Below are positions 8,482 through 58,018 of a stretch of DNA of 64,000 nt, piece after piece. A program made the position numbers and the translations under genes. Position 1 is the first letter of the stretch, and each line of letters opens with the position of its first letter. This DNA is from an uncultured bacterium (GTDB lineage Bacteria > Krumholzibacteriota > Krumholzibacteriia > Krumholzibacteriales > Krumholzibacteriaceae): positions 58,142-122,141 of the forward strand of contig CAWFAD010000012.1 in assembly GCA_963813815.1 (NCBI GenBank), in the 5' to 3' direction. The notes under the pieces are model-generated. The model saw nothing but the letters and a program-made list of their open reading frames with translations, was not told where the DNA came from and made no database searches.

Positions 8482-8488
8482 GTTCGTC

Positions 8489-11605: not shown

Positions 11606-11654
11606 GGCTCGCTCTTTCCTGAGGTCGTCCTCTCTGCATCGACTCCCGCGCGCG

Positions 11655-16174: not shown

Positions 16175-16439
16175 CTGCTACCTCCTGTAGGGTTTCCGTT
16201 CGCTCGCAGGATTATCGTTTCAGTCGGATACATGGTCGCGCAAAACGCGGCACTAAACGCTTGAATTTATTGAGATACTCCGCAAATGTCAAGACAAAAT
16301 CGGTTTGGCGAATGGGGGTTCCGCAAACCTCTGGAAACGAATCCCCAGCCGGTATATACTCTCACACTGCGGCGTTCGAGCGGCCCGTACCGGGCATGCA
16401 ACGCCCTCCGCGAAACGGGACGCCGCGCCGCGAACGACC

Positions 16440-19585: not shown

Positions 19586-20394
19586 CCTCGCCGCCGGCTT
19601 CATGGTCGCCGGGGTCGCGACCGTCTTTTACCGTCGCCGGCTCACCGGCGTCCGGCTCGCCGCCGAGCTCAGGGCGGCGCACAAGGCGCAGATGTCGATC
19701 ATGCCCCAGTCGGATCCGGCGATCGAGGGGTTCGAAATCTCCGGAACCTGCATCCCCGCCTACGAGGTCGGAGGCGATTTCTACGATTACTTCTGGCTCG
19801 GGAAGGATCGCCGCCGCTTCGGCATCGCCGTCGGCGACGTCGCGGGGAAGGCCATGAACGCCGCGATGATATCGGTCATGTCGAGCGGCATGCTCTCCTC
19901 GAAGGTCGATAACGCCGTTTCGGTCGCCGGCCTCATGCGCGACCTCAACGGGCCGCTCTTCAACAAGACCGACGATTACGTGTTCACGGCGCTCTGTCTT
20001 CTCTCGCTCGACGCCGGAGCGAAATCTGGCGTCTTACAGCGTCGCCGGATTCAACAACCCCATTCTCAAATCCCGCGCGGGCGTGCGTTCGCTCCCCGGA
20101 CGGGGACCGCAGTTCCCCCTCGGGAGCCTCGAGAACATCGCCTACGAGGAGACGGCCCTGCGGCTCGAACGTGGAGACGTTCTCCTTGTGTTTTCGGACG
20201 GACTCATCGAGGAGCGGAACAAGGCGGGCGAATTCTTCGGCCTCGAGCGCCTGCGCGCGCTTCTCGAGACCCTCGACACGGCGGGCATGACGGCGCGCGG
20301 GATCAAGGAGTCGATCGTCTCGGAGGTGCTCGCCTTCGCCGGAAAGCGGCGCCATGACGACGACATCACGCTCGTCGTCGTGAAGGCCGCCTAA
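19586..20394 (+). pseudogene. PP2C-family (SpoIIE/RsbU-like) Ser/Thr phosphatase domain. The 5' end is truncated by the insertion and there is a +1 frameshift near 20030. It is probably the C-terminal part of the upstream sensor gene
   Basis: Frame of ORF 19419..20357 reads LAAGFMVAGVATVFYRRRL (a TM helix) then AELRAAHKAQMSIMPQSD ... GGDFYDYFWL ... GIAVGDVAGKAMNAAM. It then shifts into ORF 20083..20394, which reads SYSVAGFNNPILKSRAGVRSLPGRG ... VLLVFSDGLIEERN ... DDITLVVVKAA. Confidence 0.6.
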
Positions 20395-44120: not shown

Positions 44121-45020
44121 ATGAGAATGCACCGTGCGCTGGCGCTCCTCGCGGCCGCCGGCGCGCTCGCGGCGCTCGCCCCCTCGAGCGGAAGCGCGGA
44201 CCCCACCTATGAGAGCAATCGATGCGATCGCGCCATCACGATCGACGGAGAGGCGACCGAGTGGGCGGGCCGGGAAGCGCGCTACGACGAGGAGGACGGC
44301 TACAAGCTCGGCTTCTTCAACGACGAGGAATACCTCTACGTGTACTTCGCCACTTGGAATCTCTCGACGCAGCAGCGCGTGCTCACGAGCGGCCTCACCG
44401 TCTGGCTCGACGGCGGCGGCAAGAAGAAGAAAACCTTCGGAATCAACTATCCGCGCGGCCGCGACCGGGGTCCCGGGAGCGGATTCCCGGCGGCCGACGG
44501 CGCCGCTCCCGGCGAAATACCTCGCGAGGCGCGCGGCGAGGCGCCGCGCTCGATGCAACGCCCCGGAGCGAATCCGGATCCGGCGAAGCTCGCGGCCCTT
44601 CTCAACGAAACGCAGGCCGAGGCGCTGCTCAAGAGCCCGGCCGGCGATTCGGTCCTGCTCCTCTCTCCTGCCGACAGCTCCGCCGCGGGGCTTCGGGCGA
44701 TGCTCCGGGCGAGAAGCAGGCTCCTCGTCATAGAGCTTCGCGTGCCCCTCGATCCGGGCGCGGCTTCGCCCTACGCGCTTCATGCGGTTCCGGGACGAAC
44801 CATCAGCGTCGGATTCGAAACGGGCACGATGGAGAGACCGAAATTGACGCGCCCGCAGGGCATGCCGGAGGACGATCAAACGGGCGGAGGAATGCCTCCC
44901 GGCGGAGGCGGCAATGCCCCCGGGGGCGGCATGTTTCCCGGCGGAGGCGCGGGGGGTCCCGGGGGAATGGGCGCGCCCGAAGGGCTCAAGCTCTGGGTCA
45001 AGGTCAAGCTCGCTCCGTAG
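44121..45020 (+). CDS. Hypothetical secreted protein with a Gly/Pro-rich C-terminus
   Basis: From the internal Met MRMHRALALLAAAGALAALAPSSGSA there is a signal peptide. The C-terminus reads GGGMPPGGGGNAPGGGMFPGGGAGGPGGMGAP. No family was recognised. Confidence 0.4.
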   Translation: MRMHRALALLAAAGALAALAPSSGSADPTYESNRCDRAITIDGEATEWAGREARYDEEDGYKLGFFNDEEYLYVYFATWNLSTQQRVLTSGLTVWLDGGGKKKKTFGINYPRGRDRGPGSGFPAADGAAPGEIPREARGEAPRSMQRPGANPDPAKLAALLNETQAEALLKSPAGDSVLLLSPADSSAAGLRAMLRARSRLLVIELRVPLDPGAASPYALHAVPGRTISVGFETGTMERPKLTRPQGMPEDDQTGGGMPPGGGGNAPGGGMFPGGGAGGPGGMGAPEGLKLWVKVKLAP

Positions 45021-45492
45021 AGCTCCCGCCCACGAGCTTCTCGGGCACCTGCACGGCGACGAGCTCGCCGCGCGCACAGGGCTTGCCGCCGGCCCTCAGC
45101 GTGGCCGTGACGACGATCTTTCGCCCCTTGATCTCCTTGACCTTCGCGCGCACCTCGAGGAGCGTGTCGATCGGAGTGGGCTGAAGGTAGTCCACGTGAA
45201 GCGACGCGGTGACGAATCGCCGCGGGGGATCGGACCCCATCTCCCGCCCCTCGGCCCGATACGCCGCGGCCGACGCCGTTCCGGTGCAGTGGCAATCGAT
45301 GAGGGAAGCGATGAGCCCCCCGTACACGTAACCGGGGATCGACGTGTGGTACGGCTTCGGCTCGAAGACGCACACCGCCTCGTCCCCGTCCCAGTAGCTC
45401 TTGATGTGGAGGCCGTGCTCGTTCAGCCGTCCGCAGCCGTAACACTGCGCGAAATTGTCCGGATAATATTCCTGGAACGCCTTCGGCGTCAT
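45004..45492 (-). CDS. Hotdog-fold thioesterase (PaaI/YbgC-like)
   Basis: Internal Met MTPKAFQEYYPDNFAQCYGCGRLNEHGLHIKSYWDGDEAVCVFEPKPYHTSIPGYVYGGLIASLIDCH, 162 aa. It is the last gene of the long minus-strand operon. The upstream part of ORF 45004..46161 was rejected. Confidence 0.65.
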   Translation of the reverse strand: MTPKAFQEYYPDNFAQCYGCGRLNEHGLHIKSYWDGDEAVCVFEPKPYHTSIPGYVYGGLIASLIDCHCTGTASAAAYRAEGREMGSDPPRRFVTASLHVDYLQPTPIDTLLEVRAKVKEIKGRKIVVTATLRAGGKPCARGELVAVQVPEKLVGGSSTERA

Positions 45493-46656
45493 TTCAAGGC
45501 CTCCTTGCGTCCCGCGTAGAAGTCGCGGTAAAAGGATATCGAGCTCCAGACCTCTCGCGGGATAAGGGGCTCGCCGCGCAGAATGAAGTTCGCCATGTTG
45601 CGGCCGACGCCGGGGCCGAGCATGAAACCCTGCCCGCACATCCCGACCGCGAGATAGAGCCCATCCACTTCGCGCACCTTGTCGAGGATGATGATACCGT
45701 CGGGAGTCATGGGATAGAGGCCGCGCCAGGTGCGCCGGATGAGCATGTTCCGCAGCCGGGGTATGAGCTCGATCATGCGCCGCGCGAGCACGGGCATGAA
45801 CTCGGACGTGTTCTCCTTGTTCGTGCCCCAGATTGGAACGATCGGCGTATAGCAGAAGATGACCTGTCCCCGGTCGTTCTGGCCGAAGTAGAAGTTCTTG
45901 GTCTTGCCCTCGGGCCCCGGCCGGATATCGACGATGAGCGGGTCGAAGAACCGCTCCATCGGGGCCGAAATGCCCGCCTCGTGGCAGTCGGGCGTGACGG
46001 GGATCTCGACGCCCGCCATCGCGCCGACCTCCTTCGCGAACGATCCCGCCGCGTTCACGACGATGTTCGAGTGGTAGATCCCCGCGCGCGTTTTGACCGA
46101 GGCGATCCGGCCCCGCTTCACCGCGAGCCCCGTCACGGGCTCGTTGAAGCGGTACTCGCATCCGCCGCCCGCGCTCACCTTCCAGAGAGCGGCCGCGTAT
46201 TTCAGCGGCGATACCTGCCCGTCCCCGGGGAGAACGTGCCGCCGCGAAGATCCTTCTCGTTGATGCCCGGAACGAGCTTCTTGATGTCGTCGGGGCCGAG
46301 CCAGTCGATGTCGAGGCCGTGGCTCTTCTGGATGGAAAGGAGGCCCTTGAGGATGTTCTCTTCCGCCTCGCGGTACACCGGAAAACAGTATCCCCCCGGC
46401 ACCCATCCGAGATCGATCCCCGTGCGCTCCTGGAAGGTCGAGTAGAACTCGAGGCTCTGGAGACAGAGCGTTATCTTCGCCGGATCGGAATGGGTCGCCC
46501 GGACGCCGCCGATCGCCGCCTTGTTCTCCCCCTGTCCCACCGACGCGTTCGACTCGAGAACGAGAACCCGGAGCCGCTCGAGGGTGAGAAAGTGCGCGAT
46601 GGCGAGCCCCACGCTCCCGCGCCGATGACGATGGCGTCGTAGCTCGCGCCTTTCAT
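45489..46656 (-). pseudogene. FAD-dependent oxidoreductase (DAO family; sarcosine oxidase beta / HcnC / OoxB-like) with two frameshifts
   Basis: The N-terminus MKGASYDAIVIGAG is in the tail frame of ORF 46471..49896. The middle piece with the FAD site GSVGLAIAHFLTLERLRVLVLE is ORF 46202..46675. The C-terminal 300 aa (PGDGQVSPLKYAAALWKV ... GQGFMLGPGVGR) is ORF 45489..46406. One shift is in a CCCCGGGG homopolymer. The other shift lies between 46471 and 46675, inside the FAD-binding motif. Confidence 0.65.
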
Positions 46657-48800
46657 GCGCCATCCCCTTCCCCATCGGAGCCGGCGAACACCCCGAGCGG
46701 CACCTCCGCCGTGAACGGCCTGTTCGTCGGCAGCGTGATCTCGCCCGCCGGAATCCCGGCCTCGCGGTAGAGCCTCAGTATGAGATCGGTGCACGTCTTT
46801 CCGCCGCACGCTCCCATGCCGGTGCGGATCGTGGCCTTGAGGATGTTCATGTCCCGCACGCCGTCGCGAATCTCTTTTCGCACCTCGCCCGCCGTGATGC
46901 GCTCGCAGCGGCAGATGATCGTGTCGTCCGTCAGGGGCTCTCCGGCGGCCGGCGCCTTCGCGCCCTTCTCCGGCTCGAGCACGGTGAATCCCGCGACCGC
47001 GAAGGCGTCTCCCCGCGGCACCTCGATCGAAACGATCTTCCGCTTGGCGTCGATGTTGGAGGTGCGGAACGCGACGACGCGTCCCCGGCCGACCGCTCCA
47101 CCTTCCATGTCGACCGTCTTGACTTCCTTCCCCTCCGCGAGATCCGTCGTTTCCAGCTCGTAGGGCAGCATGAGGAGCGACGTCTTCCGGGCGGGGTCGT
47201 ACTCCGGCATGACGAGACTGATCGCGAGCCCCGGACAAACCGCGACGCAGTTCGTGCAGCCGATGCAATCCCCGCCGAACACGGGATTGCACATGATCGA
47301 GTCGCCGCTCAGGATGATGCTGTTTCGGGGGCAGCTGTCGGCGCACGGATTGCAGGGGATCTCCTGAACGCAACGGATGATGGGGTAGACCCGCTTTTCG
47401 AATCTCGCGGGTTCGTCCGGGATCGTCCGTCCGGGCTTGCTGCGGAGCACCTTCGCCGTCGACTCCCACTCGTCCGGAACGTCGATGTCGCGGGCGAGCG
47501 ACCTCGCTATCCGGCGCCCCGTGATTTTTCCGCTGAATATGGCGGCGGACGCCTCGGCGATCTCCTCCGCGTCGCCGGCCTTGTAGCACTCGATTCCGTA
47601 CCCGGCGAGCTTCTCGTAGAGCTCGTTCACCGGCGAGAGGCCGACGGCGATGAGGAGCGTGTCGACGTCGTACGACCGTTCCGTTCCGGCGATCGGCTTC
47701 CAGTCCCGGTCGAGGCCAGCGATCGTGATCCGCTCGAGCGCTTCCTTGCCTTCCGCCCGGAGCACCGTGTGGGAGGTGTGAACCGGCACGCCGAGACGGC
47801 GGAGCTTGTCGAGGTGCACCTTGTATCCCCCGCATTGCGGAAGGGCCTCGACGAGCCCCACGACGGTGATCCCCGCCTGGATCGCGTGGTAGCCGGTGAT
47901 GAGACCGACGTTCCCGCCGCCGACGACGAAAAGGCGCCTCGTCGGAAGAACGAGATCGCGGTTCAGGATCGTCTGGAAGGCGCCCGCGCCGTAGACTCCC
48001 GGGAGATCGCAGCCGGGAAAGGCGAGGCTCTTTTCGCGCGCCCCGCACGCCACGAGAACGACGCGCGGTCTCGCGAGATAATACCGGCGGCCCTGTTGGA
48101 GACCGATCTGCTTGTCCCAGAAGGCGCCGACGGCGGTCGTGTCGAGCATCACCGATACGCTCGGGTACCGATCGAGCCTTCCGGTCAGGATATGCGCGAT
48201 CTCGATGCCCCGCGTGCCCGCGTAGCAATCGTCGCGCGAGCCGAAAAAGGTGTGCGTCTGCAGGGTGAGCTTTCCGCCGAGCTCGTTCTTGTCGTCCACG
48301 ACGAGCGTTTTGATCCCGAGCTCCCCAAGCTCGGCCGCCGCGTTGATGCCCGCGGGGCCGCCTCCGATGACGAGAACCTCGGTCTCGATCGTTTCGATCT
48401 CCCTGAACGCGGGGAGCGCATCGGCCGCGGGGAGAGCGGGCGAGCCGTCGCAGCTTTCGACGCGCATCCCCTCGCTCACGACTTGCATGCATCCCTTCAC
48501 GGGGACGCCCCCGACGAGGACCATGCACTGGCTGCACTGGCCGTTCGCGCAGAAGATGCCCTGCGGCCCTCCGTCGCGTTCGTGGTGGCCGAAGACCTGA
48601 ATGCCGTTCGCGAAGAGCGCCGTCGTGACGACCTCTCCCTCGTACGCCTTCATCGGCGCGCCGTTCCAGGTGAAGGACACGCTCGCCCGTTCGCGTATCG
48701 GCAGGATCGGGTGGCTCCTGACGCGGAATTCCCCCATCGCGCGAAGCGTCGCGCTCGAAACCGGCGTGGAGCGGGAGGTTTTCTTCATCTCGATCGACAC
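46653..48800 (-). CDS. Multidomain oxidoreductase with an N-terminal [2Fe-2S] domain, an FAD/NAD(P)-binding pyridine nucleotide-disulfide oxidoreductase domain, a Cys-rich 4Fe-4S-like segment and a C-terminal BFD-like [2Fe-2S] domain
   Basis: The 715 aa protein has FTWNGAPMKAYEGEVVTTALFANGIQ ... CANGQCSQCMV (a Fer2_4-like domain). It has VLVIGGGPAGINAA ... VVGGGNVGL (two Rossmann GxGxxG motifs), CNPCADSCP ... CIGCTNCVAVCP, and ICRCERITAGEVRKEI ... GACGGKTC (BFD-like). This resembles HcnA+HcnB, OoxA or SoxA. Confidence 0.7.
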   Translation of the reverse strand: MSIEMKKTSRSTPVSSATLRAMGEFRVRSHPILPIRERASVSFTWNGAPMKAYEGEVVTTALFANGIQVFGHHERDGGPQGIFCANGQCSQCMVLVGGVPVKGCMQVVSEGMRVESCDGSPALPAADALPAFREIETIETEVLVIGGGPAGINAAAELGELGIKTLVVDDKNELGGKLTLQTHTFFGSRDDCYAGTRGIEIAHILTGRLDRYPSVSVMLDTTAVGAFWDKQIGLQQGRRYYLARPRVVLVACGAREKSLAFPGCDLPGVYGAGAFQTILNRDLVLPTRRLFVVGGGNVGLITGYHAIQAGITVVGLVEALPQCGGYKVHLDKLRRLGVPVHTSHTVLRAEGKEALERITIAGLDRDWKPIAGTERSYDVDTLLIAVGLSPVNELYEKLAGYGIECYKAGDAEEIAEASAAIFSGKITGRRIARSLARDIDVPDEWESTAKVLRSKPGRTIPDEPARFEKRVYPIIRCVQEIPCNPCADSCPRNSIILSGDSIMCNPVFGGDCIGCTNCVAVCPGLAISLVMPEYDPARKTSLLMLPYELETTDLAEGKEVKTVDMEGGAVGRGRVVAFRTSNIDAKRKIVSIEVPRGDAFAVAGFTVLEPEKGAKAPAAGEPLTDDTIICRCERITAGEVRKEIRDGVRDMNILKATIRTGMGACGGKTCTDLILRLYREAGIPAGEITLPTNRPFTAEVPLGVFAGSDGEGDGA

Positions 48801-49955
48801 CTATTTCGCGAGCCTCGCCGCGGCGAGGGTCAGGAGATCCTTCACGTCGACGGGCGCCTTGCGCCACGACGTGCCGCCGAGCACTTCGGCGTAGAGGAGC
48901 GTGCATTTCGGACAGGCGGTGACGAGCGTGCCGGCGCCGGCGCGGTGCGCCTCGACGAGGCGCTCGTCGACGGCCGTCCTCGTGTGCGGCCCGTGATCGA
49001 CGAGCGATCCGGCCCCGCAGCACGGGGCCTTCGCGCCCCGCCGCTCGAGCTCGACGAGCCCCGCCGAAGAAAGGGAGCTCAGCAGCTTTCTCGGAGCGTC
49101 CTCGACCCCGAGGGATCGGCACAGATAGCAGGGATCGTGAAACGCGAATTTCTCCTCGCCGGCGCGAAAGACGAGCCCGCCGAGACGCTCGGCGATGTAC
49201 TCGGTGACGTGCCGGATCTCGATCGGCGCTCCGCCGAGCTCTCCGGCGTAATTGAATTTCAGCGTGAAGGCGCATTCGGGACACACGGTGAGAACGGTCT
49301 TCGCCTTCGCCTTCTTCAGCAGGGCCGCGTTGTGGCGCGCGAGAGCGGCGAACGCCTCGCGATCGCCCGTGTCGTACAGATCCCTGCCGCAGCAGCGCTC
49401 GTCCTCGAGAATCGCCGGGGCGACGCCGAGGCCGTTGAGGAGTCTCACCGCGGCCCTCGCCATGCCGCCGAAGGCTCCCGGCTCGACACCAATGCCGAGG
49501 GAATCGAAGAGCGCGAGGCATCCGGCGAACAGCACGACGGCGCTCTCCGGATCGAGCTCGAGCGACTTGTCGACCCACGAGTGGCGGGCCTTCGCCGCTC
49601 CCTGCCGGACCCCGGTCTCGAGCCTTTTCTGATACTGGCGGACGAGGCCACCGTGAATCGGCCGGCAATCGGATCTGCCGACGCGGAGCTCCCGGACGAA
49701 ATCGGCGAATTCGACCTTGAAGGGACACGCCTCGGTGCACGCCCGGCACGTGACGCACGTCCAAATCAGCCGGTGCTCGCGAGCGGCCGCCTCCCCGCCC
49801 CGGAGAAAGAGTTGAGCGAGATCGCGGGGATGGTGCTTGCCGTAGTGCCGGTAAACGGGACAGACCTCTGCGCACTCGTTCGCGCAGCGCGTGCAATCCT
49901 CGATGCGGAAGCTTTCCTTGATTTCCTGTTCGTTCATTTCGATTTCCATGCCCAC
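48801..49955 (-). CDS. HdrD/GlcF/GlpC-like iron-sulfur protein (2x[4Fe-4S] ferredoxin domain plus two CCG cysteine-rich domains)
   Basis: The 384 aa protein has CTRCANECAEVCP and CVTCRACTEACP motifs followed by CCG-type motifs (CCGRD, CPECAF, PCYLC, CCGAG, CPKC). Confidence 0.8.
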   Translation of the reverse strand: MGMEIEMNEQEIKESFRIEDCTRCANECAEVCPVYRHYGKHHPRDLAQLFLRGGEAAAREHRLIWTCVTCRACTEACPFKVEFADFVRELRVGRSDCRPIHGGLVRQYQKRLETGVRQGAAKARHSWVDKSLELDPESAVVLFAGCLALFDSLGIGVEPGAFGGMARAAVRLLNGLGVAPAILEDERCCGRDLYDTGDREAFAALARHNAALLKKAKAKTVLTVCPECAFTLKFNYAGELGGAPIEIRHVTEYIAERLGGLVFRAGEEKFAFHDPCYLCRSLGVEDAPRKLLSSLSSAGLVELERRGAKAPCCGAGSLVDHGPHTRTAVDERLVEAHRAGAGTLVTACPKCTLLYAEVLGGTSWRKAPVDVKDLLTLAAARLAK

Positions 49956-52195
49956 CGGTCGACGGCGAGCGCGAACTCGCCGGGACTCGTCGAAATTTCC
50001 GTCACGACGTTCGGGTTGCAGCCGAACACGCGGAGCAGATCCCGCGCCCGCTCCGCGACGAGACGCGAGCGCGAGCGCCCGAATCCGTAATGGCAGACCT
50101 CCTCACGGCAGCCGCAGACGAGAATCCTCTGGCTGCCGCGAAGCGCCGCCTCGACGATGAGGGACGGCGCGATGCGTCCCGTGCACATCGTCTCGATCAC
50201 GAGCACGCCGCCCGGCAGCTCGAGCCGCGCGGGGCGCGCCCAGCGGCAGACGAAGAGGACCTTCGTTCTCGTCGAAACCGAGGCGAGCGCTCGCATGATC
50301 GCCCCGTGCTCGAAATTGTCTTGATCGGCGGCGCCCGTCGGGCACGCGCCGGCGCAGATTCCGCAACCCTTGCAGGCGAGCTCGTCGACGCGGGCGACGA
50401 GACGGTTCCCCGGACGCGATTCGACCTGGATCGCCCGGTACCCGCACACCTCGGCGCAGCGTCCGCAGCCGATGCAGAGCCCCTCGTCGACCCGCGCGAT
50501 CGTGCGGACGACGGCGGCCTCCGTCTCTTCCTCCCCCGCCCGCACGCGGACCGTCCGCGGCAGGGCAGACCAGAACTCGCGCCCCGCATGCGCGCCGAGG
50601 GTGAAATCCCCTCCGAACTTCAGGAGCAGGTCCTTCTTCTCGCAGATATCCACGCAAACCGAGCACTCCGCGCAGGGGCCGCAGCGGAGGCACCGCCTCG
50701 CCTCGCGGCGCGCCTCCCGATCGGAGAGCCCCTTCTCGACCTCCCGGAAATCGTTCCGCCTCGCCCGCGCCCCCTCGACCGGCATGGTCGCGCGTCGCGG
50801 GTGATCTTCCGGAACGATCTCGAGCGTGTACTCCTCGTGCGCTATCGAATCGTCGATCGTGAGATCGAGCGGAGAGGAAAGAGTCTCGCCGCTCAGATGG
50901 TGATGGATGCCGAGGGCCGCCCGCTGCCCCGACGCGATCGCCTCCACGACGGTTCTCGGACCGGTGACGAGGTCGCCCGCGGCGAACACGCCACCCGCGG
51001 CGGCGGCGGATGTCGCCGGATCGATCGCAAGCGTTCCGGCGGGGGTCGTTTCGAGACCGAGAGAGGCGGCGAACCCCCTGACGTCGATCCCCCGCGTATG
51101 CGCGTCGACGAAGACGTCCGCCTCGACGGCGAACTCGCCGTCGGGACGCTCGCTCAGCTCGCGCCGGCCCGTTGCGTCCTTCGATCCCTCGACGAGCGGC
51201 GAACAGACGACCGCCTCGAGCGTCCGGCCTCTCCTCGCGAGGCGCAGCGGCCGGACGAGAAACTTGAAAACGAGGCCTTCCCCTTCGGCGAGCTCGATAT
51301 CGCCGCGGTGAAGCGCGGCGAGCTCGCGGCTCGAGCCCACGAGATAGGTGACGCGCCGCGCTCCGAGCCGGAGCGCCGTACGGGCGCAGTCGAGCGCCAT
51401 CATGCCCTCGCCGGCGACGACGACGCTCTTTCCCTCGACGATCGCCCGCGCCTTCGCGCGCTCGCCCTCCGCCGGAGCGGCCGCCGCCTCGAGGAGCTCG
51501 ATCGCGTGCAGCGCCCCTCCTCTCCCCGCCGGTCCCCATTTCCAAGAGGGTTTCCACGCGCCGTTCGCGAGGAGCAGCACCCGGTATCCCCGCCGCTTGA
51601 GCCGGCTCCACGTGACGTCCCGGCCGAACTGCACGCCCGTTTCGAGCTCGATCCCCATCTCGAGAATCATGCTCGATTCCCTCCGGACGACCTCCGCGGG
51701 AAGTCTGAATCCCGGTATGAGATTCATCATGCCGCCCGGAATCTCCCTCGCTTCGAAGATCGTGACGGCGTACCCGAGGCTCGCGAGCGCCGCCGCCGCG
51801 GAAAGCCCGGCCGGACCGGCGCCGATGACGGCGACTTTCTCCGGGCGGCTCCTCGCGGCCCTCGCGGACGGACGGATTCCGCGCTTCATCTCGAGATCGG
51901 ACACGAAGCGTTTCAGCGCGCACACGGCCACCGCCTCGTCGTGCCTGCCCCGCGTGCACGCCGCCTCGCACGGCCGCGGGCAGACGCGCCCGCAGACCCC
52001 GGGGAACGGATTCCGCTCGCGGATGAGCTCGAGAGCTTCGGCGTAGCGCCCGTCGGCGATGAGCGACACGTAGCCGCGCGCGTTGATGCGCGTCGGGCAC
52101 GCCAGCGTGCAGGGGGAGGTCTCGAGGGGAACGAGCTCCCACGTTCTCTCGCCCTGCGGCATGCGAACCCGTATCGTTTCCGCCGCGCGTTTCAT
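49934..52195 (-). CDS. Fusion protein with an NAD(P)H-dependent GltD/NfnB/SudA-like FAD oxidoreductase, a 2x[4Fe-4S] ferredoxin and an MvhD (methyl-viologen-reducing hydrogenase delta) domain
   Basis: From the internal Met MKRAAETIRV the protein is 753 aa. The GltD-like N-terminus reads CTLACPTRINARGYVSLIADGRYAEALELIRERNPFPGVCGRVCPRPCEAAC. The FAD site is KVAVIGAGPAGLSAAAALASLGY and the NAD site is SVVVAGEGMMALDCA. Ferredoxin motifs CLRCGPCAECSVCVDIC, CIGCGRCAEVC and CKGCGICAGACP follow. The MvhD-like part is KVLFVCRWARPARLELPGG ... ILVCGCREEVCHY ... GCNPNVVTEIS. The upstream part of ORF 49934..53248 belongs to a separate ferredoxin gene. Confidence 0.75.
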   Translation of the reverse strand: MKRAAETIRVRMPQGERTWELVPLETSPCTLACPTRINARGYVSLIADGRYAEALELIRERNPFPGVCGRVCPRPCEAACTRGRHDEAVAVCALKRFVSDLEMKRGIRPSARAARSRPEKVAVIGAGPAGLSAAAALASLGYAVTIFEAREIPGGMMNLIPGFRLPAEVVRRESSMILEMGIELETGVQFGRDVTWSRLKRRGYRVLLLANGAWKPSWKWGPAGRGGALHAIELLEAAAAPAEGERAKARAIVEGKSVVVAGEGMMALDCARTALRLGARRVTYLVGSSRELAALHRGDIELAEGEGLVFKFLVRPLRLARRGRTLEAVVCSPLVEGSKDATGRRELSERPDGEFAVEADVFVDAHTRGIDVRGFAASLGLETTPAGTLAIDPATSAAAAGGVFAAGDLVTGPRTVVEAIASGQRAALGIHHHLSGETLSSPLDLTIDDSIAHEEYTLEIVPEDHPRRATMPVEGARARRNDFREVEKGLSDREARREARRCLRCGPCAECSVCVDICEKKDLLLKFGGDFTLGAHAGREFWSALPRTVRVRAGEEETEAAVVRTIARVDEGLCIGCGRCAEVCGYRAIQVESRPGNRLVARVDELACKGCGICAGACPTGAADQDNFEHGAIMRALASVSTRTKVLFVCRWARPARLELPGGVLVIETMCTGRIAPSLIVEAALRGSQRILVCGCREEVCHYGFGRSRSRLVAERARDLLRVFGCNPNVVTEISTSPGEFALAVDRWAWKSK

Positions 52196-53017
52196 GCCGT
52201 GCGCGCCCCCTTCTTCCGCCCTCCGCGCCCCGTAGTCCGGCCCGCGGGCTTTCCCGCCGCCGGCTTGCGCGGCGATCGCCCGCCCCGCCGCGCGAGGGCG
52301 ACCGCCACGAGGGGATGCGTCCCCGCCTCGCCGCGCTGCTTCTGGTCGATCTCGCAGCGCGCGCATTCGTAGTTCAGCGAGCAGACCGCGTCCGGCAAAA
52401 AGCCCATGAGGGTATAGCGGCAGAGGTGCTCCCCCCCCCTGCTTGCGGAGCTCGAGGACGCGCGTGTATTCCATCTGAACGGCCCCCGTGGGGCATACGA
52501 AGGTGCACGCCCCGCAGGCGATGCACTTCGAATGATCGATGCCGTAGGGGGAGTCGACTTTCCTGTCGATCCCCCGTTCGGCGAAGCCTATCGCGTTCGC
52601 CCCGACGATCTCGGCGCACGTGCGGACGCACAGCCCGCAGAGGATGCAGTTGTCGTCGAGGGGGACAAAACGCGATTTGACGACGCCGTATCGCGCGGCG
52701 AGCTTCTTCACGTACGGAGCGTTCGGCGAGCGCGCGAGCAGCAGCTCGAGCAGAAACTTTCTCAGAGCGCGTATCCTCTCCGTCTCCGAACGCACCTCGA
52801 GCCCGTCGGCGACCGGATAGAGGCACGAGGTCACGATCCGCCAGCGTTTCTTGCCCCTCTCTCTGACCTCCACGACGCAGAGCCGGCAGGCTCCATAGGG
52901 TTCGAGAGCGTCGTGAGCGCAGACGGCGGGAATGTCGACGCCCGCGGCGCGCGCCGCGTCGAGCACGCTCTCCCCTTCCCGCGCCGGCCTCGCCCTGCCG
53001 TTCAGGATAAACCTCAT
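52192..53017 (-). pseudogene. [2Fe-2S] plus 2x[4Fe-4S] ferredoxin-like protein (paralogue of 8489..9214), frameshifted in a G9 homopolymer
   Basis: From the internal Met MRFILNGRARPAREGESVLDAARAAGVDIPAVCAHDALEPYGACRLCVVEV ... CILCGLCVRTC ... CIACGACTFVCP. The frame then moves, at a run of nine G around 52430, into ORF 52192..52407 (MGFLPDAVCSLNYECARCEID ... basic tail). Its stop overlaps the ATG of the next gene as ATGA. Confidence 0.6.
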
Positions 53018-53553
53018 GTATAGCTCTCCAGCGCCTTGTCGACCGTGAGGTGGTCGAGCTTGCCGTGTATGTTTCCGTCGATCGTCATGACCGGAGCCTG
53101 ACCGCAGCATCCGAGACACCGGACCGTCTCGAACGAAAAACGTCCGTCGGCGGTCGTCCCGCCCTCCGCGATTCCGAGCGTCCGCTCGATCGCATCCTTT
53201 ACCCGCTCCCCGCCCCGCACGTGGCAGGCCGTCCCCATGCAGAGGCATACCTCGTGGCGGCCGCGGGGCTCGAGCCGGAAGGCCTTGTAGAAGGTCGCGA
53301 TCGCGTAGAGGCGCGTCATCGGCACGTCGAGCTCCCGCGCGATGTACCGCAGATCCGCCTCGCCGAGGTAGCGGCGCTTCTCCTGAAGATCCTGGAGAAT
53401 GGCGATGATCTGGACGCTCGCGCGTCCGTGCCGCTCGAGGACCTCCTCGATGGCCGATGCCTCTGGCGCCGCCGGAGACGGCACGGCCGTCGAGGGGCCG
53501 CGCCGCGCGGCGAGCGCGCGTTCGATGGCTCGTATGCTCTCGCTTCCGCTCAT
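53014..53553 (-). CDS. NuoE/HydC-type [2Fe-2S] subunit (second copy)
   Basis: From the internal Met MSGSESIRAIERALAAR ... CLCMGTACHVRG ... CLGCCGQAP, 179 aa. The upstream extension of ORF 53014..53802 was rejected. Confidence 0.8.
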   Translation of the reverse strand: MSGSESIRAIERALAARRGPSTAVPSPAAPEASAIEEVLERHGRASVQIIAILQDLQEKRRYLGEADLRYIARELDVPMTRLYAIATFYKAFRLEPRGRHEVCLCMGTACHVRGGERVKDAIERTLGIAEGGTTADGRFSFETVRCLGCCGQAPVMTIDGNIHGKLDHLTVDKALESYT

Positions 53554-53600
53554 GGCTTGTGTCCCGGGCGGCCCCGGAGGGGGGCCTCCTTCGCGCGGCG

Positions 53601-55478
53601 TCACCTCTCTATCGCGTCGAATTTGCAGACGTCCCAGCAGGCGCCGCACTTGATGCAACGCGCCTCGTCGATCACGTGGACCTCTTTCGGCTTTCCGCTG
53701 ATACAGCCCGACGGGCACGGCTTGAAGCAGGCGTGGCACCCCGTGCACCGCCCGGTCTCGATCCGGTACCGCAGGAGCGGCTTGCACACTCCGGCGGGGC
53801 ACCGTTTGTCGCGGATGTGAGCCTCGATCTCGTCCCTGAAATAGCGGATCACGGTCAGCACCGGATTCGGGGCGGAGCCGCCGAGCGCGCAGAGCGAGGT
53901 CGCGGCCACGTTCCCCGCGATCTCCTCGAGGAGCGCCACGTCACCCCGCTTCCCCTTCCCCCCGGCTATCCGGTTCAATATCTCGAGAAGCGCGCGGAGC
54001 CCCTCGCGGCACGGAAGGCACTTCCCGCACGATTCATCCTTCAGAAAGTCTATGAAATACCGGGCGACGTCCACCATGCAGGTGTTCTCGTCCATGACGA
54101 TCATGCCGCCGGATCCCATCATCGATCCCGCCTCCGCGAGGCGGTCGAAATCGACCGGCAGGTCGAGCATCGACTCGGGGAGCACCCCTCCCGACGGCCC
54201 GCCCGTCTGCACCGCCTTGAACTTCTTTCCGTTCGGCACGCCCCCGCCGATGTCGAAGATAATTTCGCGGAGCGTCGTTCCCATCGGCACCTCGACGAGA
54301 CCGGTGTTCACGACCTTGCCCACGAGCGAGAATATCTTGGTCCCCTTGCTCCCGCCCCAGGGGCTCTCGCTCACGTCGCCGACCCCTATCGAGGTGTACC
54401 AGTCGACGCCCCCGAGAACGATCTTCGGCACGTTGGCCCACGTCTCGACGTTGTTGAGCACGGTCGGCATCTCAAAGAGCCCCTTCTCGACCGTGTGAAC
54501 GTACTTCGCGCGCGGCTCCCCGGGTTTCCCCTCGAGGGACGCCATGAGCGCGGTCGATTCGCCGCAGACGAACGCCCCACCCCCGCGCGATATGCCGATA
54601 TCGAAGGAGAAATCGCTCCCGAGGATGCGCCGGCCGAGGAGACCGCATTCGCGTGCCTGCGCGAGCGCGATCGTGAGCGACTCGAGGGCCAGCGGATATT
54701 CATGGCGAACGTAGATGTATCCCTCGCTCGCCCCGACGGCGTACGCGCCGATGATCATCCCCTCGATGACGCTGTGCGGATTTCCCTCGCAGACGCTGCG
54801 GTCCATGAACGCGCCCGGATCGCCCTCGTCGGCGTTGCAGATGACGTATTTCCGCTCGCCCCGCGCCCGCCGCGCGGTGCTCCACTTGACGCCGGCCGGA
54901 AACCCCCCACCTCCCCGCCCGCGGAGCCCCGAGCGCGTTATCGTCTCGATGACCTTCCGCGGGTTCGCTCCCTCGAGCGCGCGCCGGAGCGCCTGATACC
55001 CGTCGAGCGCGATGTAGTCCCGAATGTCCGTCGGATCGATCCTCGAGTTGTCGCCGAGCACGAGGCGAAGCTGCTTGCGGTAGTAAGGCACCTCGTCCTC
55101 GATCTCGACGCGCCGTTTGCTTCGCGGGTCGAGATAGAGGAGGCGCTCGACGACCTCGCCGCGCGCGAGCGTCTTCTCGACGATCTCGGGCACGTCGGAG
55201 GGCCGCACCTGCGTATAGAGGATCCGCCGGGGATGAATGACGACGAGGGCGCCCTTCTCGCAGAAGCCGTGGCAACCGGTGGCCTTGACCTCGACGTGGC
55301 GCAGCCGCGCTTTGGCGACCTCGCGTCTCATGGCTTCGTGGACGTGGACCGAGTCGCAGGCGCGGCAGCCCGTGTCCGTGCAGATGCCGACGGTGACGGC
55401 CCCCGCTGGGCGCTGCTCGATGATCTGCTTCTTGAACCTATCGAGGCTGCCGTATGAACGAAGCTTCGAGAGTTTCAG
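53601..55478 (-). CDS. NuoF/HydB-type NADH-binding FMN flavoprotein with an N-terminal thioredoxin-like [2Fe-2S] domain and C-terminal 2x[4Fe-4S] domain (second copy)
   Basis: About 625 aa with GICTDTGCRAC ... ATGCHGFCEKG, GRGGGGFPAGVKW and DESCGKCLPCREG. The C-terminus has CTGCHACFKPCP ... CIKCGACWDVC. No ATG is in frame between the upstream stop and the domain. The likely start is a CTG or GTG preceded by GGAGGT at about 55478, so the start is uncertain. Confidence 0.75.
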   Translation of the reverse strand: MKLSKLRSYGSLDRFKKQIIEQRPAGAVTVGICTDTGCRACDSVHVHEAMRREVAKARLRHVEVKATGCHGFCEKGALVVIHPRRILYTQVRPSDVPEIVEKTLARGEVVERLLYLDPRSKRRVEIEDEVPYYRKQLRLVLGDNSRIDPTDIRDYIALDGYQALRRALEGANPRKVIETITRSGLRGRGGGGFPAGVKWSTARRARGERKYVICNADEGDPGAFMDRSVCEGNPHSVIEGMIIGAYAVGASEGYIYVRHEYPLALESLTIALAQARECGLLGRRILGSDFSFDIGISRGGGAFVCGESTALMASLEGKPGEPRAKYVHTVEKGLFEMPTVLNNVETWANVPKIVLGGVDWYTSIGVGDVSESPWGGSKGTKIFSLVGKVVNTGLVEVPMGTTLREIIFDIGGGVPNGKKFKAVQTGGPSGGVLPESMLDLPVDFDRLAEAGSMMGSGGMIVMDENTCMVDVARYFIDFLKDESCGKCLPCREGLRALLEILNRIAGGKGKRGDVALLEEIAGNVAATSLCALGGSAPNPVLTVIRYFRDEIEAHIRDKRCPAGVCKPLLRYRIETGRCTGCHACFKPCPSGCISGKPKEVHVIDEARCIKCGACWDVCKFDAIER

Positions 55479-55549
55479 AGACGACCTCCGGCCGATATGA
55501 GCAATAAAGATAAACTGAATAAATAAGAAATCCCTGACGGTGTCAAGGG

Positions 55550-57529
55550 CTAGGGAGCGATGGTGAGAAGCACCTGATCCTTCTCGACCGAGGTGCCGGG
55601 GGCGACCTTGAGCGCCTTGACGGTGCCGTTCATGCCGGACGTGAGGTTGTTCTGCATCTTCATGGCCTCGAGGATGACGAGAACGTCCCCCTCCTTGACC
55701 TTGTCGCCGACCTTCACCTCGAACTGCACCACCATTCCCGGCATAGGGGCTATGACCGAATATTCGCCGTTCGAGGACGCCGGGGCGTCGTTCTTCGCGC
55801 CCTTCGGCTTCGCCTCGTCCTTCTGCGGTTTCGGTTCCTCTTTCTTCTCGTTTTCCTTCTTCTCCGTCTCGGCCGGAGTCGACGGCTCCTTGCGAACGAG
55901 AGGCTGCGTCTCGCCGACCGCGACGACGCGCGGCTTGCCGCCTATCTCCTCGACGTCGACGCTGTATCGCTCCCCGCTGACCGAGACGCTGAAGGTGCGG
56001 ATGGCCGAGCCGCCCGATCCGCTCGCCGCCGGGGCCTTCTCGACAAGCTGGCCCTTGAGCGCCTTCTCGATCGTCTCGTTCTCGCGTTTGACGTCCTCGA
56101 TCGTTTTCGCTTTCGTCTCCGGGGGCGCCTGCTCCTTGCCGTACTTCCAGCGCAGGAAACGCAGCCCCGTCGTCGGATACATCGCGTAGACGAGGATGTC
56201 CCGCTCGTTTTTCGCGATATCTTTCGTCGCCTCGCGCGCCTTGTCCATCTCGGGCTCGAGGGTATCGGCCGCGCGGCACGTGATGGGCTTCTCGCCGCGC
56301 GGATAGCCATGGAGCACGATCCGCTGGATGCGCGGATCGATGGGGGCCGGCGGTTTGCCGTAGAGGCCGTAGACGTAGTCCTTCACCTGGCTCGAGATCA
56401 TCTTGTACCGGCCGAAAAGGACGTTCTGGACGGCCTGCGTCCCGACGATCTGGCTCGTCGGGGTCACGAGCGGCGGGTACCCGAGCTCCTTGCGCGTGCG
56501 CGGCAGCTCCTCGTACACCTCGCCTATGCGGTCGAGGGCGTCCGCCTCCTTGAGCTGGCTCATGAGGTTCGTGAGCATGCCGCCGGGTATCTGGTGATCG
56601 AGCACCCCGGTATCGATGATCGACATCTTCGTCGAATCGAGGAACTGCCGGTACTTGGGAGCGATCGACTCGAGGTACTGCGCCACCTCGTAGAGCTTCT
56701 CGAGATCGAGCCCGGGGTCGCGCATCTTTCCCTTGAGAGCCGCGACGATCGGCTCCACGGCCGGCTCGCTCGTGCGGAGACCGAACGGCGACACGGCGCA
56801 ATCGACAATGTCGACCCCCGCCTCGATCGCCTTGAGATAGGTCATCGACGCCATGCCGCTCGTGTAATGGCAGTGAAGCTGGAGCGGGATCTTCACGACC
56901 CGTTTGAGGGCCTGAATGAGCTCGTAGGCGTCATACGGGTTGAGAAGGCCGGCCATGTCCTTGATGCAGATCGAATCCGCCCCCATCTCCTTGAGTGCCT
57001 TGGCCTTCTCGACGTAATAGCGGAGATTGTATACCTTGCCGCCGATCTTCGACCCTGTGAGCGAGAAGGAGATGGTGCCCTGAATGTGCTTTTTCGCCTT
57101 CTTGATCGCCTTGAACGAGGCCACGAAGTTGCGCTCGTCGTTCAGCGCGTCGAACACGCGGAAGATGTCGACGCCGGCCTCGGCCGATTCGGCCACGAAC
57201 GCATCGACCACGTCGTCGGCGTAGTTGCGGTAACCGACGAGATTCTGGCCTCGAAGCAGCATCTGAAGCGGCGTTTTCTTCACGCGCTTCTTGAGCTCGA
57301 CGAGCCGGTCCCATGGATCCTCGTTGAGAAAGCGCGTCGCGACGTCGAACGTCGCCCCGCCCCATACCTCGAGGGCATGAAATCCGATCCGGTCCAGCCG
57401 CTCGGCGATGGGAAGCATGTCCTCCGTCCGCATCCTCGTCGCGAGCGTGGACTGGTGCCCGTCCCTGAGCGTGGTATCGGTGATCTTTACGGATGTGAAG
57501 GCCTTGAGAATTCTGGCCCGATTCGGCAT
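55550..57529 (-). CDS. oadA: Carboxyltransferase plus biotin carboxyl carrier protein (oxaloacetate decarboxylase alpha / pyruvate carboxylase subunit B type)
   Basis: The 659 aa protein has a TIM-barrel carboxyltransferase N-terminus (ITDTTLRDGHQS). After a Pro/Glu/Lys-rich linker, the C-terminal biotinyl domain has the EAMKM biotinylation motif. Confidence 0.85.
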   Translation of the reverse strand: MPNRARILKAFTSVKITDTTLRDGHQSTLATRMRTEDMLPIAERLDRIGFHALEVWGGATFDVATRFLNEDPWDRLVELKKRVKKTPLQMLLRGQNLVGYRNYADDVVDAFVAESAEAGVDIFRVFDALNDERNFVASFKAIKKAKKHIQGTISFSLTGSKIGGKVYNLRYYVEKAKALKEMGADSICIKDMAGLLNPYDAYELIQALKRVVKIPLQLHCHYTSGMASMTYLKAIEAGVDIVDCAVSPFGLRTSEPAVEPIVAALKGKMRDPGLDLEKLYEVAQYLESIAPKYRQFLDSTKMSIIDTGVLDHQIPGGMLTNLMSQLKEADALDRIGEVYEELPRTRKELGYPPLVTPTSQIVGTQAVQNVLFGRYKMISSQVKDYVYGLYGKPPAPIDPRIQRIVLHGYPRGEKPITCRAADTLEPEMDKAREATKDIAKNERDILVYAMYPTTGLRFLRWKYGKEQAPPETKAKTIEDVKRENETIEKALKGQLVEKAPAASGSGGSAIRTFSVSVSGERYSVDVEEIGGKPRVVAVGETQPLVRKEPSTPAETEKKENEKKEEPKPQKDEAKPKGAKNDAPASSNGEYSVIAPMPGMVVQFEVKVGDKVKEGDVLVILEAMKMQNNLTSGMNGTVKALKVAPGTSVEKDQVLLTIAP

Positions 57530-57568
57530 ACAGCAAACCCTTCAAAAAGGTTTCGGCGGAGCCCCTGA

Positions 57569-57769
57569 TTATATGATCGAGAATCTCCTCGGGCTCATCC
57601 GTGCCGGATTCGCCCGCACGGCCAGCGCCATCTTCGACATCGTTTCCCGGCGCCCGGCCATTTTCCAGGGGCTCAGCTTCTGCCCGAACCTTCTCTCGTC
57701 GTTATTTTCCAGTTCTATGTATGCATCCACGGCCGCCGTGATGACGGCGAGCGTCCTCGTGTCGAGCAT
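57569..57769 (-). CDS. Small hypothetical ORF upstream of oadA
   Basis: The 66 aa ORF has an AVITAAVDAY segment reminiscent of the C-terminal motif of OadG (the sodium-pump decarboxylase gamma subunit) but lacks the expected N-terminal TM helix. Confidence 0.2.
   Translation of the reverse strand: MLDTRTLAVITAAVDAYIELENNDERRFGQKLSPWKMAGRRETMSKMALAVRANPARMSPRRFSII

Positions 57770-57940: not shown

Positions 57941-58018
<78 letters not shown>

Follow-up and report, generated by a model that had tools for sequence, protein, structure and literature searches.

The 64,000-nucleotide stretch of DNA analysed here (the window, to whose full length all coordinates refer) carries a cluster of redox genes at 45004-57769, on the minus strand throughout and with a G+C content of 64-70%, whose core encodes a NuoF-like protein (BfuB/HydB-type), a NuoE-like protein (BfuC/HydC-type), a BfuA-like ferredoxin, a GltD-like flavoprotein ending in an MvhD domain, an HdrD-like iron-sulfur (Fe-S) protein, and the alpha and beta subunits of a dehydrogenase resembling the L-proline dehydrogenase PDH1. 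The cluster is a variant of the Bfu family of bifurcating enzymes, in a combination for which no description was found in the literature. Its genes are likely to encode one functionally coupled system and, somewhat less certainly, the products from NuoF through the DAO-family beta subunit may well assemble, as judged from gene order and domain content, into one multi-subunit Fe-S flavoprotein complex in which a proline-family dehydrogenase is tied to nicotinamide adenine dinucleotide, NAD(H), and ferredoxin. An initial annotation of the same DNA had proposed an undescribed complex joining NuoEF, GltD, MvhD and HdrD-type parts to a flavin adenine dinucleotide (FAD)-dependent pair of the HcnAB, SoxAB or proline-dehydrogenase kind, a proposal that now gains computational support from the recurrence of the cluster, from gene fusions and from the phylogeny of alpha. 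Its gene list, strand and positions also hold, every listed gene being present and every domain confirmed with Pfam, by which the domains were assigned, with further profiles drawn from NCBIfam and PDB.

Recurrence, gene fusions and alpha phylogeny

One genome per species was scanned with an alignment of alpha, which yielded at least 583 loci; the best 80, at species level, were analysed, their gene content being scored with locally built, iterated hidden Markov models. The full arrangement occurs with intact genes at loci whose alpha is 85% (L001) and 73% identical (L003, in a complete 4.1-Mb genome), and variants of it occur in many phyla, so that the conserved neighbourhood which the initial annotation had suggested looking for does recur. 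The observations that it had named beforehand as speaking against such a system did not appear: relatives keep the genes together and have an intact beta, and both MvhD and CCG domains were detected. The window comes from a relative of Candidatus Krumholzibacteriota, the name that alpha homologues carry in public records, and, going by record titles, the best 80 loci include Krumholzibacteriota, Syntrophomonadaceae/Bacillota, Planctomycetota, Myxococcota, Desulfobacterota, Chloroflexota, Acidobacteriota, Cloacimonadota, Zixibacteria, Bipolaricaulota, Thermoplasmatales and Heimdallarchaeia.

Wherever the contig extends far enough, alpha and beta are neighbours in essentially all of the 80 loci. 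Directly upstream of alpha, 28 of the 80 carry an adaptor composed of a 2x[4Fe-4S] domain, MvhD and the HdrD-like protein, and 17 have NuoE, NuoF and a BfuA-type ferredoxin in addition, with BfuB within 6 kb on the same strand; a GltD-like gene is found in eight loci and the OadA gene in seven. Gene order is not constant: the more distant locus L005 reads NuoE-NuoF-ferredoxin-GltD-MvhD-HdrD-like-alpha-beta, with NuoE and NuoF reversed and MvhD as a free gene, and L042 likewise departs from the window order (NuoE before NuoF, MvhD separate). Three modular states can be distinguished, in which the adaptor is accompanied by Bfu only (type D), by the GltD-like protein only (type E, e.g., L089) or by both (types A and C, including the window). 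This pairing of the adaptor with Bfu alone, an NfnB-like protein alone or both provides a natural experiment in modular bifurcation.

Gene fusions provide the strongest evidence for the redox module and the dehydrogenase belonging to a single complex. In seven Syntrophomonadaceae/Bacillota species (L016, L017, L020, L023, L024, L025 and L036), a single stop-free open reading frame (ORF) of 1250-1337 amino acids (aa) comprises the BfuA-type Fer2_4 and 2xFer4 domains, two more Fer4 domains, FlpD/MvhD, a cysteine-poor HdrD-like stretch and the whole of alpha. Likewise, in L032, L038 and the archaeal L089, a single ORF joins GltD, ferredoxin, MvhD and HdrD-like segments and has its end at the start codon of alpha. 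In a rough neighbour-joining tree of alpha, the adaptor-linked sequences make up one clade and the adaptor-less ones the other, and the alphas of Krumholzibacteria that have OadA only nest beside those of full clusters, which is suggestive of secondary loss of the module.

Several points weigh against a single obligate assembly. The one-complex reading is drawn from synteny and fusions. Where 6.5 kb or more is available upstream (43 loci), the adaptor is present in 17 and none of these genes in 23, and the alpha/beta enzyme therefore does not need adaptor or Bfu. In the Krumholzibacteria loci L004 and L006, a 66-aa ORF (s66) and OadA are followed by alpha and beta with nothing in between. Finally, the cluster-linked BfuB proteins are not clearly monophyletic in a rough neighbour-joining tree relative to the BfuB of a second, pyruvate oxidoreductase-linked set in the window (Por-Bfu, see below), and a dedicated Bfu clade is therefore not claimed.

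Such loci raise the question of whether two or three independent enzymes could lie side by side, for example an Nfn-Bfu-type transhydrogenase next to an alpha/beta enzyme that delivers electrons through its own HdrD/GlpC-like subunit to a quinone, a thiol or another carrier. The NuoF/NuoE/ferredoxin/GltD group indeed equals the subunit set of characterised NfnABC/StnABC (PMC7483475, PMC11829005), dehydrogenases of the GlpABC, LdhH and TfrB types (those matched in NCBIfam) use HdrD-like CCG proteins as subunits for electron exit, many alpha/beta loci are without Bfu genes, and a GltD/MvhD plus CCG pair occurs beside pyruvate:ferredoxin oxidoreductase (POR) genes with no alpha/beta in L087 and L088. 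However, this explanation is improbable in view of the single BfuA-ferredoxin-MvhD-HdrD-like-alpha polypeptide of seven species and the GltD-ferredoxin-MvhD-HdrD-like ORF of three loci, and because in all solved cases MvhD acts as an adaptor between modules, alpha phylogeny follows adaptor presence, and the GltD domain of NfnABC is fused to BfuA and lacks MvhD. Overlaps of the ATGA type between genes also argue against it; as the initial annotation had pointed out, start and stop codons overlap in this way, and they do so at five junctions (NuoE/ferredoxin, ferredoxin/GltD, GltD/HdrD, alpha/DAO and DAO/thioesterase). A single complex, with the qualifications above, remains the preferred reading.

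Redox modules and their known relatives

The NuoF-like protein (53601-55478) gave full-length PDB matches to bifurcating subunits with E values of 1e-225 to 1e-182 (9MQX_B, the A. mobile NiFe-HydB 7T2R_B, HydB 8A6T_B/7Q4V_B/7P5H_B, NfnB 9N5U_B/9BOV_B and StnB 8OH5_B), whereas the non-bifurcating FdsB and NuoF scored about 1e-112 or weaker. Schut et al. define BfuB by an N-terminal [2Fe-2S] cluster and two C-terminal [4Fe-4S] clusters, which non-bifurcating homologues lack, and by the motif H-x5-C-x4-C (PMC9304861). The window protein contains an N-terminal [2Fe-2S] site (B5; 2Fe-2S_thioredx at residues 34-116, CTDTGC...CHGFC), a C-terminal 2x[4Fe-4S] region (B3 and B4; two Fer4 domains at residues 586-638, CTGCHAC..CP and CIKCGAC..C), and the sequence EAHIRDKRCPAGVC, which conforms to H-x5-C-x4-C and aligns with the motif of 9MQX_B; it would contribute to the [2Fe-2S] cluster B2, the three ligands mapped being those that correspond to H525, C531 and C536 in A. 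mobile numbering (PMC9304861). The flavin mononucleotide (FMN)/NADH domain and the B1 [4Fe-4S] site are also present (Complex1_51K 2e-44; NADH_4Fe-4S 3.5e-31; full-length alignment to 9MQX_B), together with an SLBB domain. The NuoE-like protein (53014-53553) has the [2Fe-2S] domain of BfuC (2Fe-2S_thioredx, E 7e-47) and HoxE/NuoE-type matches in NCBIfam, and the ferredoxin (52192-53017, frameshifted in the window) has the BfuA domains Fer2_4 and two Fer4 (Fer4_7), consistent with one [2Fe-2S] and two [4Fe-4S] clusters. By these sequence signatures, the three genes are assigned to a Bfu-family module, a HydB/HydC-type pair with a BfuA-like ferredoxin. The earlier view of NuoEF, ferredoxin and GltD as bifurcation parts thus stands, and they are described more precisely as a Bfu or Nfn-Bfu-type module.

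The third substrates listed for Bfu enzymes are H2, formate, NADP, F420, aldehydes, pyruvate, CO, benzoyl-CoA, menaquinone and H2O2, and 18 of the 57 Bfu clades are uncharacterised (PMC9304861). No proline, sarcosine, MvhD or HdrD Bfu type appears in the text of that study or in one supplementary file. The window cluster shares with BfuABC the BfuB-type NuoF, the BfuC-type NuoE, the BfuA-like Fer2_4 plus 2xFer4 protein and the clustering of third-substrate genes alongside, but differs in that the third-substrate module is a PDH1-like alpha/beta pair reached through MvhD and an HdrD-like protein (PMC9304861).

The window holds a second Bfu set on the minus strand at 7936-13762, sandwiched among POR genes in the order POR alpha (12578-13762), POR beta with its thiamine pyrophosphate (TPP) domain (11655-12572), NuoE (11138-11692), NuoF (9271-11109), BfuA-like ferredoxin (8489-9259) and POR gamma (7936-8574), with an AMP-forming acetyl-CoA synthetase gene upstream (14216-16177). 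The NuoF protein of this set (9271-11109) is 59% identical to the cluster NuoF of L001, and the set matches the 'Por-Bfu' type, which is uncharacterised and was predicted by Schut et al. (PMC9304861).

The GltD-like protein (49934-52195; Fer4_20, Pyr_redox_2, two Fer4 and FlpD/MvhD) is an NfnB/GltD-type FAD subunit with two [4Fe-4S] clusters and an NAD(P)H-type Rossmann fold, to which an HdrA-C-terminal-type 2x[4Fe-4S] ferredoxin domain and an MvhD [2Fe-2S] domain are fused. Its best PDB matches are the NADPH-binding domains of NfnABC/StnC subunits (9BOV_A, 4e-88; 9N5U_A; 8OH5_C), followed by NfnB (4YLF_B, 5e-67; 5JCA_L, 4e-63), and its C-terminus matches residues 568-641 of HdrA (5ODC_A) as well as MvhD chains, with NCBIfam HdrA2 at positions 569-747. 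The TrxR-type flavoprotein core of HdrA is absent, the C-terminal ferredoxin domain of the GltD-like protein being its only HdrA-like part. A second Rossmann motif reads G-E-G-M-M-A (GxGxxA), which, by the rule of thumb that separates GxGxxA from GxGxxG (PMC12054007), would weakly suggest NADP.

The NfnB/GltD-like FAD domain combined with BfuB and BfuC is also characteristic of Nfn-Bfu/StnABC (S. ovata 8OH5, C. saccharolyticus 9BOV and T. sibiricus 9N5U). Here, in contrast, the GltD-like gene is separate from BfuA, has the extra HdrA-type ferredoxin and MvhD, and is followed by HdrD-like, alpha and beta genes; no PyrK-like NfnA gene occurs in the cluster, and GltD is not fused within BfuA in the intact relatives L001 and L003. 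In T. sibiricus itself, the Nfn-Bfu genes (Tsib1517-1519) do not adjoin the proline dehydrogenase (PDH) cluster of that organism (TSIB_0634 region).

In the HdrD-like protein (48801-49937; Fer4_8 and two CCG domains, 1.9e-25), the cysteines C140...CC182/183...C219xxC222 and C270xxC273...CC306/307...C342xxC345 make up two complete CCG motifs, and the best NCBIfam matches (TfrB, LdhH and GlpC) all fall under the cut-off. The domain can be aligned in all cluster types, and its CCG and CxxC cysteines are kept only in full clusters of Krumholzibacteria and partly in L015, the CCG cysteines having been lost in most other lineages (types C and D). The conserved role of the HdrD-like protein therefore looks like that of a scaffold or electron relay, not of a disulfide reductase, and of the amine/imine or disulfide couple that had been proposed initially, the disulfide half is argued against by this loss. 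It is still conceivable, at a very low probability, that the intact CCG clusters of the Krumholzibacteria protein reduce a heterodisulfide or protein disulfide, with alpha/beta as mere electron input, as the window, L003 and L015 have the two CCG motifs and the two cubane motifs in complete form and such clusters serve disulfide reduction in HdrB and HdrD. However, most lineages with the same adaptor position have dispensed with the CCG cysteines, the cluster holds no thiol-cofactor genes, and the equivalent clusters of BamD pass electrons to a flavoprotein and bind no heterodisulfide.

A distant GltD-ferredoxin-MvhD protein and HdrD-like CCG protein follow POR alpha/beta/gamma in L087 (4640-10912) and L088 (8001-13738), and this pair is followed by a FAD-fold protein of about 200 aa and a Fer4/FlpD protein of 613-628 aa, in what looks like a further uncharacterised POR-linked Hdr-like module. 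Given its position next to POR in these two loci, the combination of a GltD/MvhD protein with a CCG protein has the look of a portable hub.

By analogy, class II benzoyl-CoA reductase is taken as the closest solved counterpart of the wiring. In that enzyme, electrons run from HydBC-like BamGHI through MvhD-like BamF to the flavoprotein BamE and HdrD-like BamD, from which the high-potential electron goes to an electron-transfer flavoprotein (ETF) (bioRxiv 10.64898/2026.04.10.717634). What BamBCDEFGHI and the window cluster have in common is the HydBC-like input, the MvhD adaptor, a flavoprotein that contains an HdrA-type ferredoxin domain (BamE) and a protein resembling HdrD/HdrBC (BamD); from the non-cubane clusters of BamD, electrons pass to a further flavoprotein, namely ETF. 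They differ in that the flavoprotein here is of the NfnB/GltD type and not the HdrA/TrxR type, that MvhD is fused and not free, and that the tungsten-containing BamBC of the aldehyde:ferredoxin oxidoreductase (AOR) type is absent (no AFOR domains in the cluster by Pfam), the partner at the HdrD-like end being the operon-encoded DAO-type alpha/beta dehydrogenase.

Dehydrogenase, substrate and direction of electron flow

Alpha (46653-48800, 715 aa) is a protein of the PDH1/SoxA/HcnAB type that combines a Fer2_4 [2Fe-2S] domain, a Pyr_redox_2 dinucleotide fold, a 2x[4Fe-4S]-type eight-cysteine motif (Fer4) and a BFD [2Fe-2S] domain, its cluster cysteines all being invariant across 15 homologues; its PDB matches are 1Y56_A (PH1363, E 4e-21) and SoxA (2GAG_A), and a look-up of its exact sequence returned no record. 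Beta (45489-46656), a DAO-family FAD dehydrogenase, would hold the substrate site. Its best PDB match is 1Y56_B, the beta subunit of P. horikoshii L-proline dehydrogenase, aligned end to end with an E value of 7e-49; the next best reaches 6e-25, and the E values of glycine oxidase, dimethylglycine dehydrogenase and SoxB lie between 1e-25 and 1e-21.

A DAO-family beta adjoining a Pyr_redox_2-type alpha is a layout shared with PDH1 (PH1363/PH1364, PDB 1Y56), D-hydroxyproline dehydrogenase, opine dehydrogenase and HcnABC, and proline racemase and OCD neighbours parallel the Thermococcus PDH1 cluster. Unlike these enzymes, the alpha described here is a fusion of about 700 aa with three Fe-S domain types, and the known enzymes are either dye-linked without a defined physiological acceptor or membrane- or quinone-linked, none having been reported with Bfu, MvhD or Hdr partners. 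More generally, no description of a Bfu-, MvhD- or Hdr-linked dehydrogenase of the proline/sarcosine type was found in the literature, of which the search covered a part.

Neighbouring genes were surveyed by a Pfam scan of two genes on each side of the cluster, pooled over the 80 loci. The flanks include P5C (pyrroline-5-carboxylate) reductase (five loci), a class-III aminotransferase of the ornithine-aminotransferase type (four), AOR (four), aldehyde dehydrogenase (three), ornithine cyclodeaminase (OCD)/mu-crystallin (two), a glycyl-radical enzyme (two), and proline racemase directly upstream of alpha (two), as well as transporters for peptides and amino acids; AOR neighbours of alpha/beta are confined to some Desulfobacterales loci without Bfu. 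Comparable proline racemase/OCD clusters surround the genes for hetero-oligomeric L-proline dehydrogenases in Thermococcus litoralis and T. sibiricus (PMC4141209). Taken together, these neighbourhoods support a proline-, hydroxyproline- or P5C-related substrate without fixing the enantiomer or the direction. In the Syntrophomonadaceae loci L016 (1323-16541) and L017 (439-16461), the Bfu-alpha/beta genes are flanked by a PFL-like glycyl-radical enzyme, an ornithine-aminotransferase-like gene, P5C reductase, a homocitrate-synthase-like HMGL gene and a ROK-family gene, a neighbourhood suggestive of a hydroxyproline/ornithine/proline island.

Whether the substrate belongs to the proline family is evenly balanced on these data. 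Counting against it, beta is only about one-third identical to PDH1 beta (a by-eye estimate from the alignment); it is uniformly 27-30% identical by tblastn to many opine-oxidase-like plasmid genes, which gives no ranking of opine oxidase versus PDH; no NCBIfam equivalog scores above its cut-off for alpha, beta, the HdrD-like or the GltD-like protein; and P5C reductase in one operon with a proline dehydrogenase would amount to a futile cycle unless the two work in different directions. The complex could accordingly be real and yet act on sarcosine or dimethylglycine, glycine, a D-amino acid or a pyruvate-releasing opine, which is an unlikely but serious alternative: the family includes opine dehydrogenase, hydrogen cyanide (HCN) synthase, D-hydroxyproline dehydrogenase and sarcosine oxidase (PMC4575208), and beta is about 30% identical to many such genes. 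The conserved Krumholzibacteria neighbour OadA/PycB, a pyruvate/oxaloacetate enzyme, and the HMGL-like gene downstream in Syntrophomonadaceae are the reason why a pyruvate-releasing, opine-type reaction stays among the rivals. A proline-family substrate is nevertheless preferred, given that PDH1 beta is the closest solved relative by a wide margin, that the recurring neighbours are P5C, proline and ornithine enzymes, and that the survey of the 80 loci turned up no folate-binding or SoxG/SoxD-type genes.

Domains and cofactor motifs, conserved linkage and fusions were all observed, and the cofactor inventory fits an unbroken chain of clusters. In the mechanism proposed here, BfuB, BfuC and the BfuA-like ferredoxin would provide an NAD(H) site at FMN and a ferredoxin site at the C-terminal clusters of BfuB, and electrons would be relayed from the BfuA clusters through the HdrA-type ferredoxin domain and MvhD [2Fe-2S] of the GltD-like flavoprotein to the HdrD-like protein, the alpha clusters and the beta flavin. 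Beta would act on a proline-family imino acid, converting L- or D-proline or hydroxyproline to pyrroline carboxylate, and flavin-based electron bifurcation or confurcation would connect a high-potential amine/imine couple with ferredoxin as well as with NAD(P)(H). On the model of Nfn enzymes or class II benzoyl-CoA reductase, the GltD-like subunit, optional because many lineages lack it, would bring in either a site for NADP(H) or a further flavin that bifurcates, and where AOR adjoins, oxidation of glutamate semialdehyde could, speculatively, regenerate reduced ferredoxin.

In a peptide fermenter, the preferred direction would be proline + reduced ferredoxin + 2 NAD+ -> P5C + oxidised ferredoxin + 2 NADH. 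The P5C/proline couple lies at about -120 mV, far above NAD+/NADH, and this reaction is therefore thermodynamically matched. The electron-confurcating lactate dehydrogenase Ldh-EtfAB follows the same logic, in which co-oxidation of reduced ferredoxin drives the oxidation of a substrate too positive for NAD+ and yields 2 NADH, but its machinery is unrelated, with a bifurcating FAD in Etf in place of the Bfu and/or NfnB-type site envisaged here. Mechanistically, electrons could just as well flow the other way, P5C serving as a bifurcating electron sink. Confurcating oxidation as the physiological direction is put forward with some hesitation, as a tentative choice. Two considerations tell against energy coupling, namely that with a couple near -120 mV the reaction could be a simple non-conserving reduction, and that the third substrate in the published Bfu scheme is usually of mid-potential (PMC9304861).

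The proposal, if true, would have consequences both for the Bfu family and for amino acid metabolism. The Bfu family would gain a new class of third substrate and a new kind of adaptor, in which MvhD is combined with an HdrD-like scaffold that is often degenerate, and in the Krumholzibacteria version an NfnB-like flavin would follow in series as the second one, an arrangement known from class II benzoyl-CoA reductase. The flavin-based bifurcating systems that are well characterised have H2, formate, NAD(P)H, F420, acyl-CoA, lactate, aldehydes or heterodisulfides as substrates, and none of them is known to use an amino acid. For twenty years, work on the PDH-type proline, hydroxyproline and opine dehydrogenases has treated them as "dye-linked", their natural electron acceptor being undefined. 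It is a possibility worth stating, at somewhat below even chances, that the cluster represents the first amino-acid-oxidising (proline-family) class of flavin-based confurcating/bifurcating enzymes, a Bfu-family class found in at least about eight phylum-level lineages, as well as the missing electron partner of the dye-linked PDH-type dehydrogenases. Strict anaerobes would then couple proline/P5C to NAD(P)H and ferredoxin independently of quinone, and quinone-free fermenters could oxidise proline or have P5C as an energy-conserving sink. The single BfuA-alpha polypeptides of Syntrophomonadaceae would be convenient targets for expression and cryo-electron microscopy.

The window copy, its proposed transcription units and its surroundings

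Compared with locus L001 (alpha 85% identical), which served as the reference for indels by tblastn and DNA alignment, the roughly 12-kb cluster of the window contains three single-base indels, one in the ferredoxin and two in beta, a finding that tells against an active system in this genome. Homologue comparison was used because a frame plot of G+C at third codon positions (GC3) combined with an ORF heuristic was unable to tell frameshifts from ordinary gene junctions. In the ferredoxin, an extra G in the DNA alignment with L001 marks a +1 insertion in a run of nine G (C9 on the plus strand, 52431-52439); the L001 protein falls into two frames by tblastn, with a break at 52433/52431, and the last 77 codons, downstream of the Fer2_4/Fer4 domains, are shifted out of frame. 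This insertion accounts for a 1027-aa ferredoxin::GltD reading frame, which is a read-through and no true fusion; the public annotation of the same contig also has a 1027-aa product of this kind (P0121), and the ferredoxin is a separate gene of 279-307 aa in L001 and L003. In beta, two -1 deletions near 46616 and near 46224 lie inside the 1.17-kb gene; the L001 DAO protein spans three window frames by tblastn in pieces that are 74-91% identical, no window ORF holds the FAD-binding N-terminus of beta together with the remainder, and beta is intact at 388-390 aa in L001 and in L003-L006.

The window copy thus appears, from its sequence, to be either mis-assembled or recently inactivated, two cases that just three events do not allow to be separated. 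The view that the cluster consists of decaying, functionless pseudogenes in this genome, whatever relatives do, draws on the concentration of three indels in 12 kb, two of them in the 1.17-kb beta gene, on the loss of the FAD-binding N-terminus from the longest remaining beta ORF, and on the flanking genes (about 4.5 kb compared with L001) and the other large genes checked by Pfam/tblastn, in which no frameshifts were found. It is nevertheless doubtful, since the broken genes are still 72-91% identical to L001 at the protein level, like their intact neighbours, one indel lies in a nine-base homopolymer, a kind of site prone to assembly error, the two beta indels lie at G-rich stretches that are likewise error-prone (a two-base A run and a C between G runs), and the clustering of the indels is statistically not compelling at n=3.

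The initial annotation had also treated nine genes, OadA through the thioesterase, as a single operon; all are present on the minus strand, but OadA probably belongs to a separate unit with s66, so that s66-OadA and NuoF through thioesterase would form two transcription units. This division follows from a conserved promoter-like motif in the AT-rich 72-nt spacer between OadA and NuoF (55478-55549), where TTGACA...ATTTCTTATT(A/T)AT is followed by GGAGG, a ribosome-binding site, and then by CTG in the window, L001, L003 and L009; the motif can also be rendered TTGACA...ATTTCTTATTNAT. The CTG after GGAGG is conserved in the four genomes compared, with no conserved ATG, GTG or TTG there, and the NuoF-like gene may start at this CTG (55478), a possible non-canonical start. 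A candidate terminator 3' of OadA, called as a hairpin from TTGACACC...GGG, is better read as part of the promoter-like motif.

The s66 gene (57572-57769, minus strand), which was recognised by tblastn against relatives and belongs to the Krumholzibacteria synteny outside the cross-phylum core, is preceded by a promoter-like site at 57823-57794. It is 80% identical to its counterpart in L001 and 59% to that in L003, precedes OadA in 11 aligned Krumholzibacteria loci, has the consensus MD....AAI.AAV.AYIE......RFGQKLSPWKMG.RRE...R.LAVRGNP.RVRLRRFSL, and had no match in Pfam, NCBIfam or PDB-profile searches; no claim is built on a likeness between its AAIxAAVxAY motif and OadG C-termini. OadA/PycB (55550-57529; HMGL-like, PYC_OADA and the biotinyl domain Biotin_lipoyl) combines a carboxyltransferase with a biotinyl carrier, matches NCBIfam PRK09282 ('pyruvate carboxylase subunit B') with 784 bits against a cut-off of 402, and lies directly upstream of alpha in Krumholzibacteria loci without the redox module. 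The hotdog thioesterase gene (45004-45492; 4HBT, E 3e-10), which overlaps the DAO stop codon, is confined to the window and L001/L007 and is absent after DAO in L003. Both OadA and the thioesterase are outside the core conserved across phyla.

Directly upstream of the s66-OadA promoter-like site, a tRNA-Phe (GAA) gene on the minus strand (57941-58016) marks the upstream boundary of the unit. Elsewhere in the window, a low-GC stretch at 18000-20000 (0.56 versus about 0.64) includes runs of eight T (19258-19265) and twelve T (19571-19582), and the coding signal switches strand within it, with plus-strand coding up to about 18800 and again from about 19584. A tRNA-Sec gene with the anticodon TCA is located on the minus strand at 3997-4094, and the organism therefore decodes selenocysteine.

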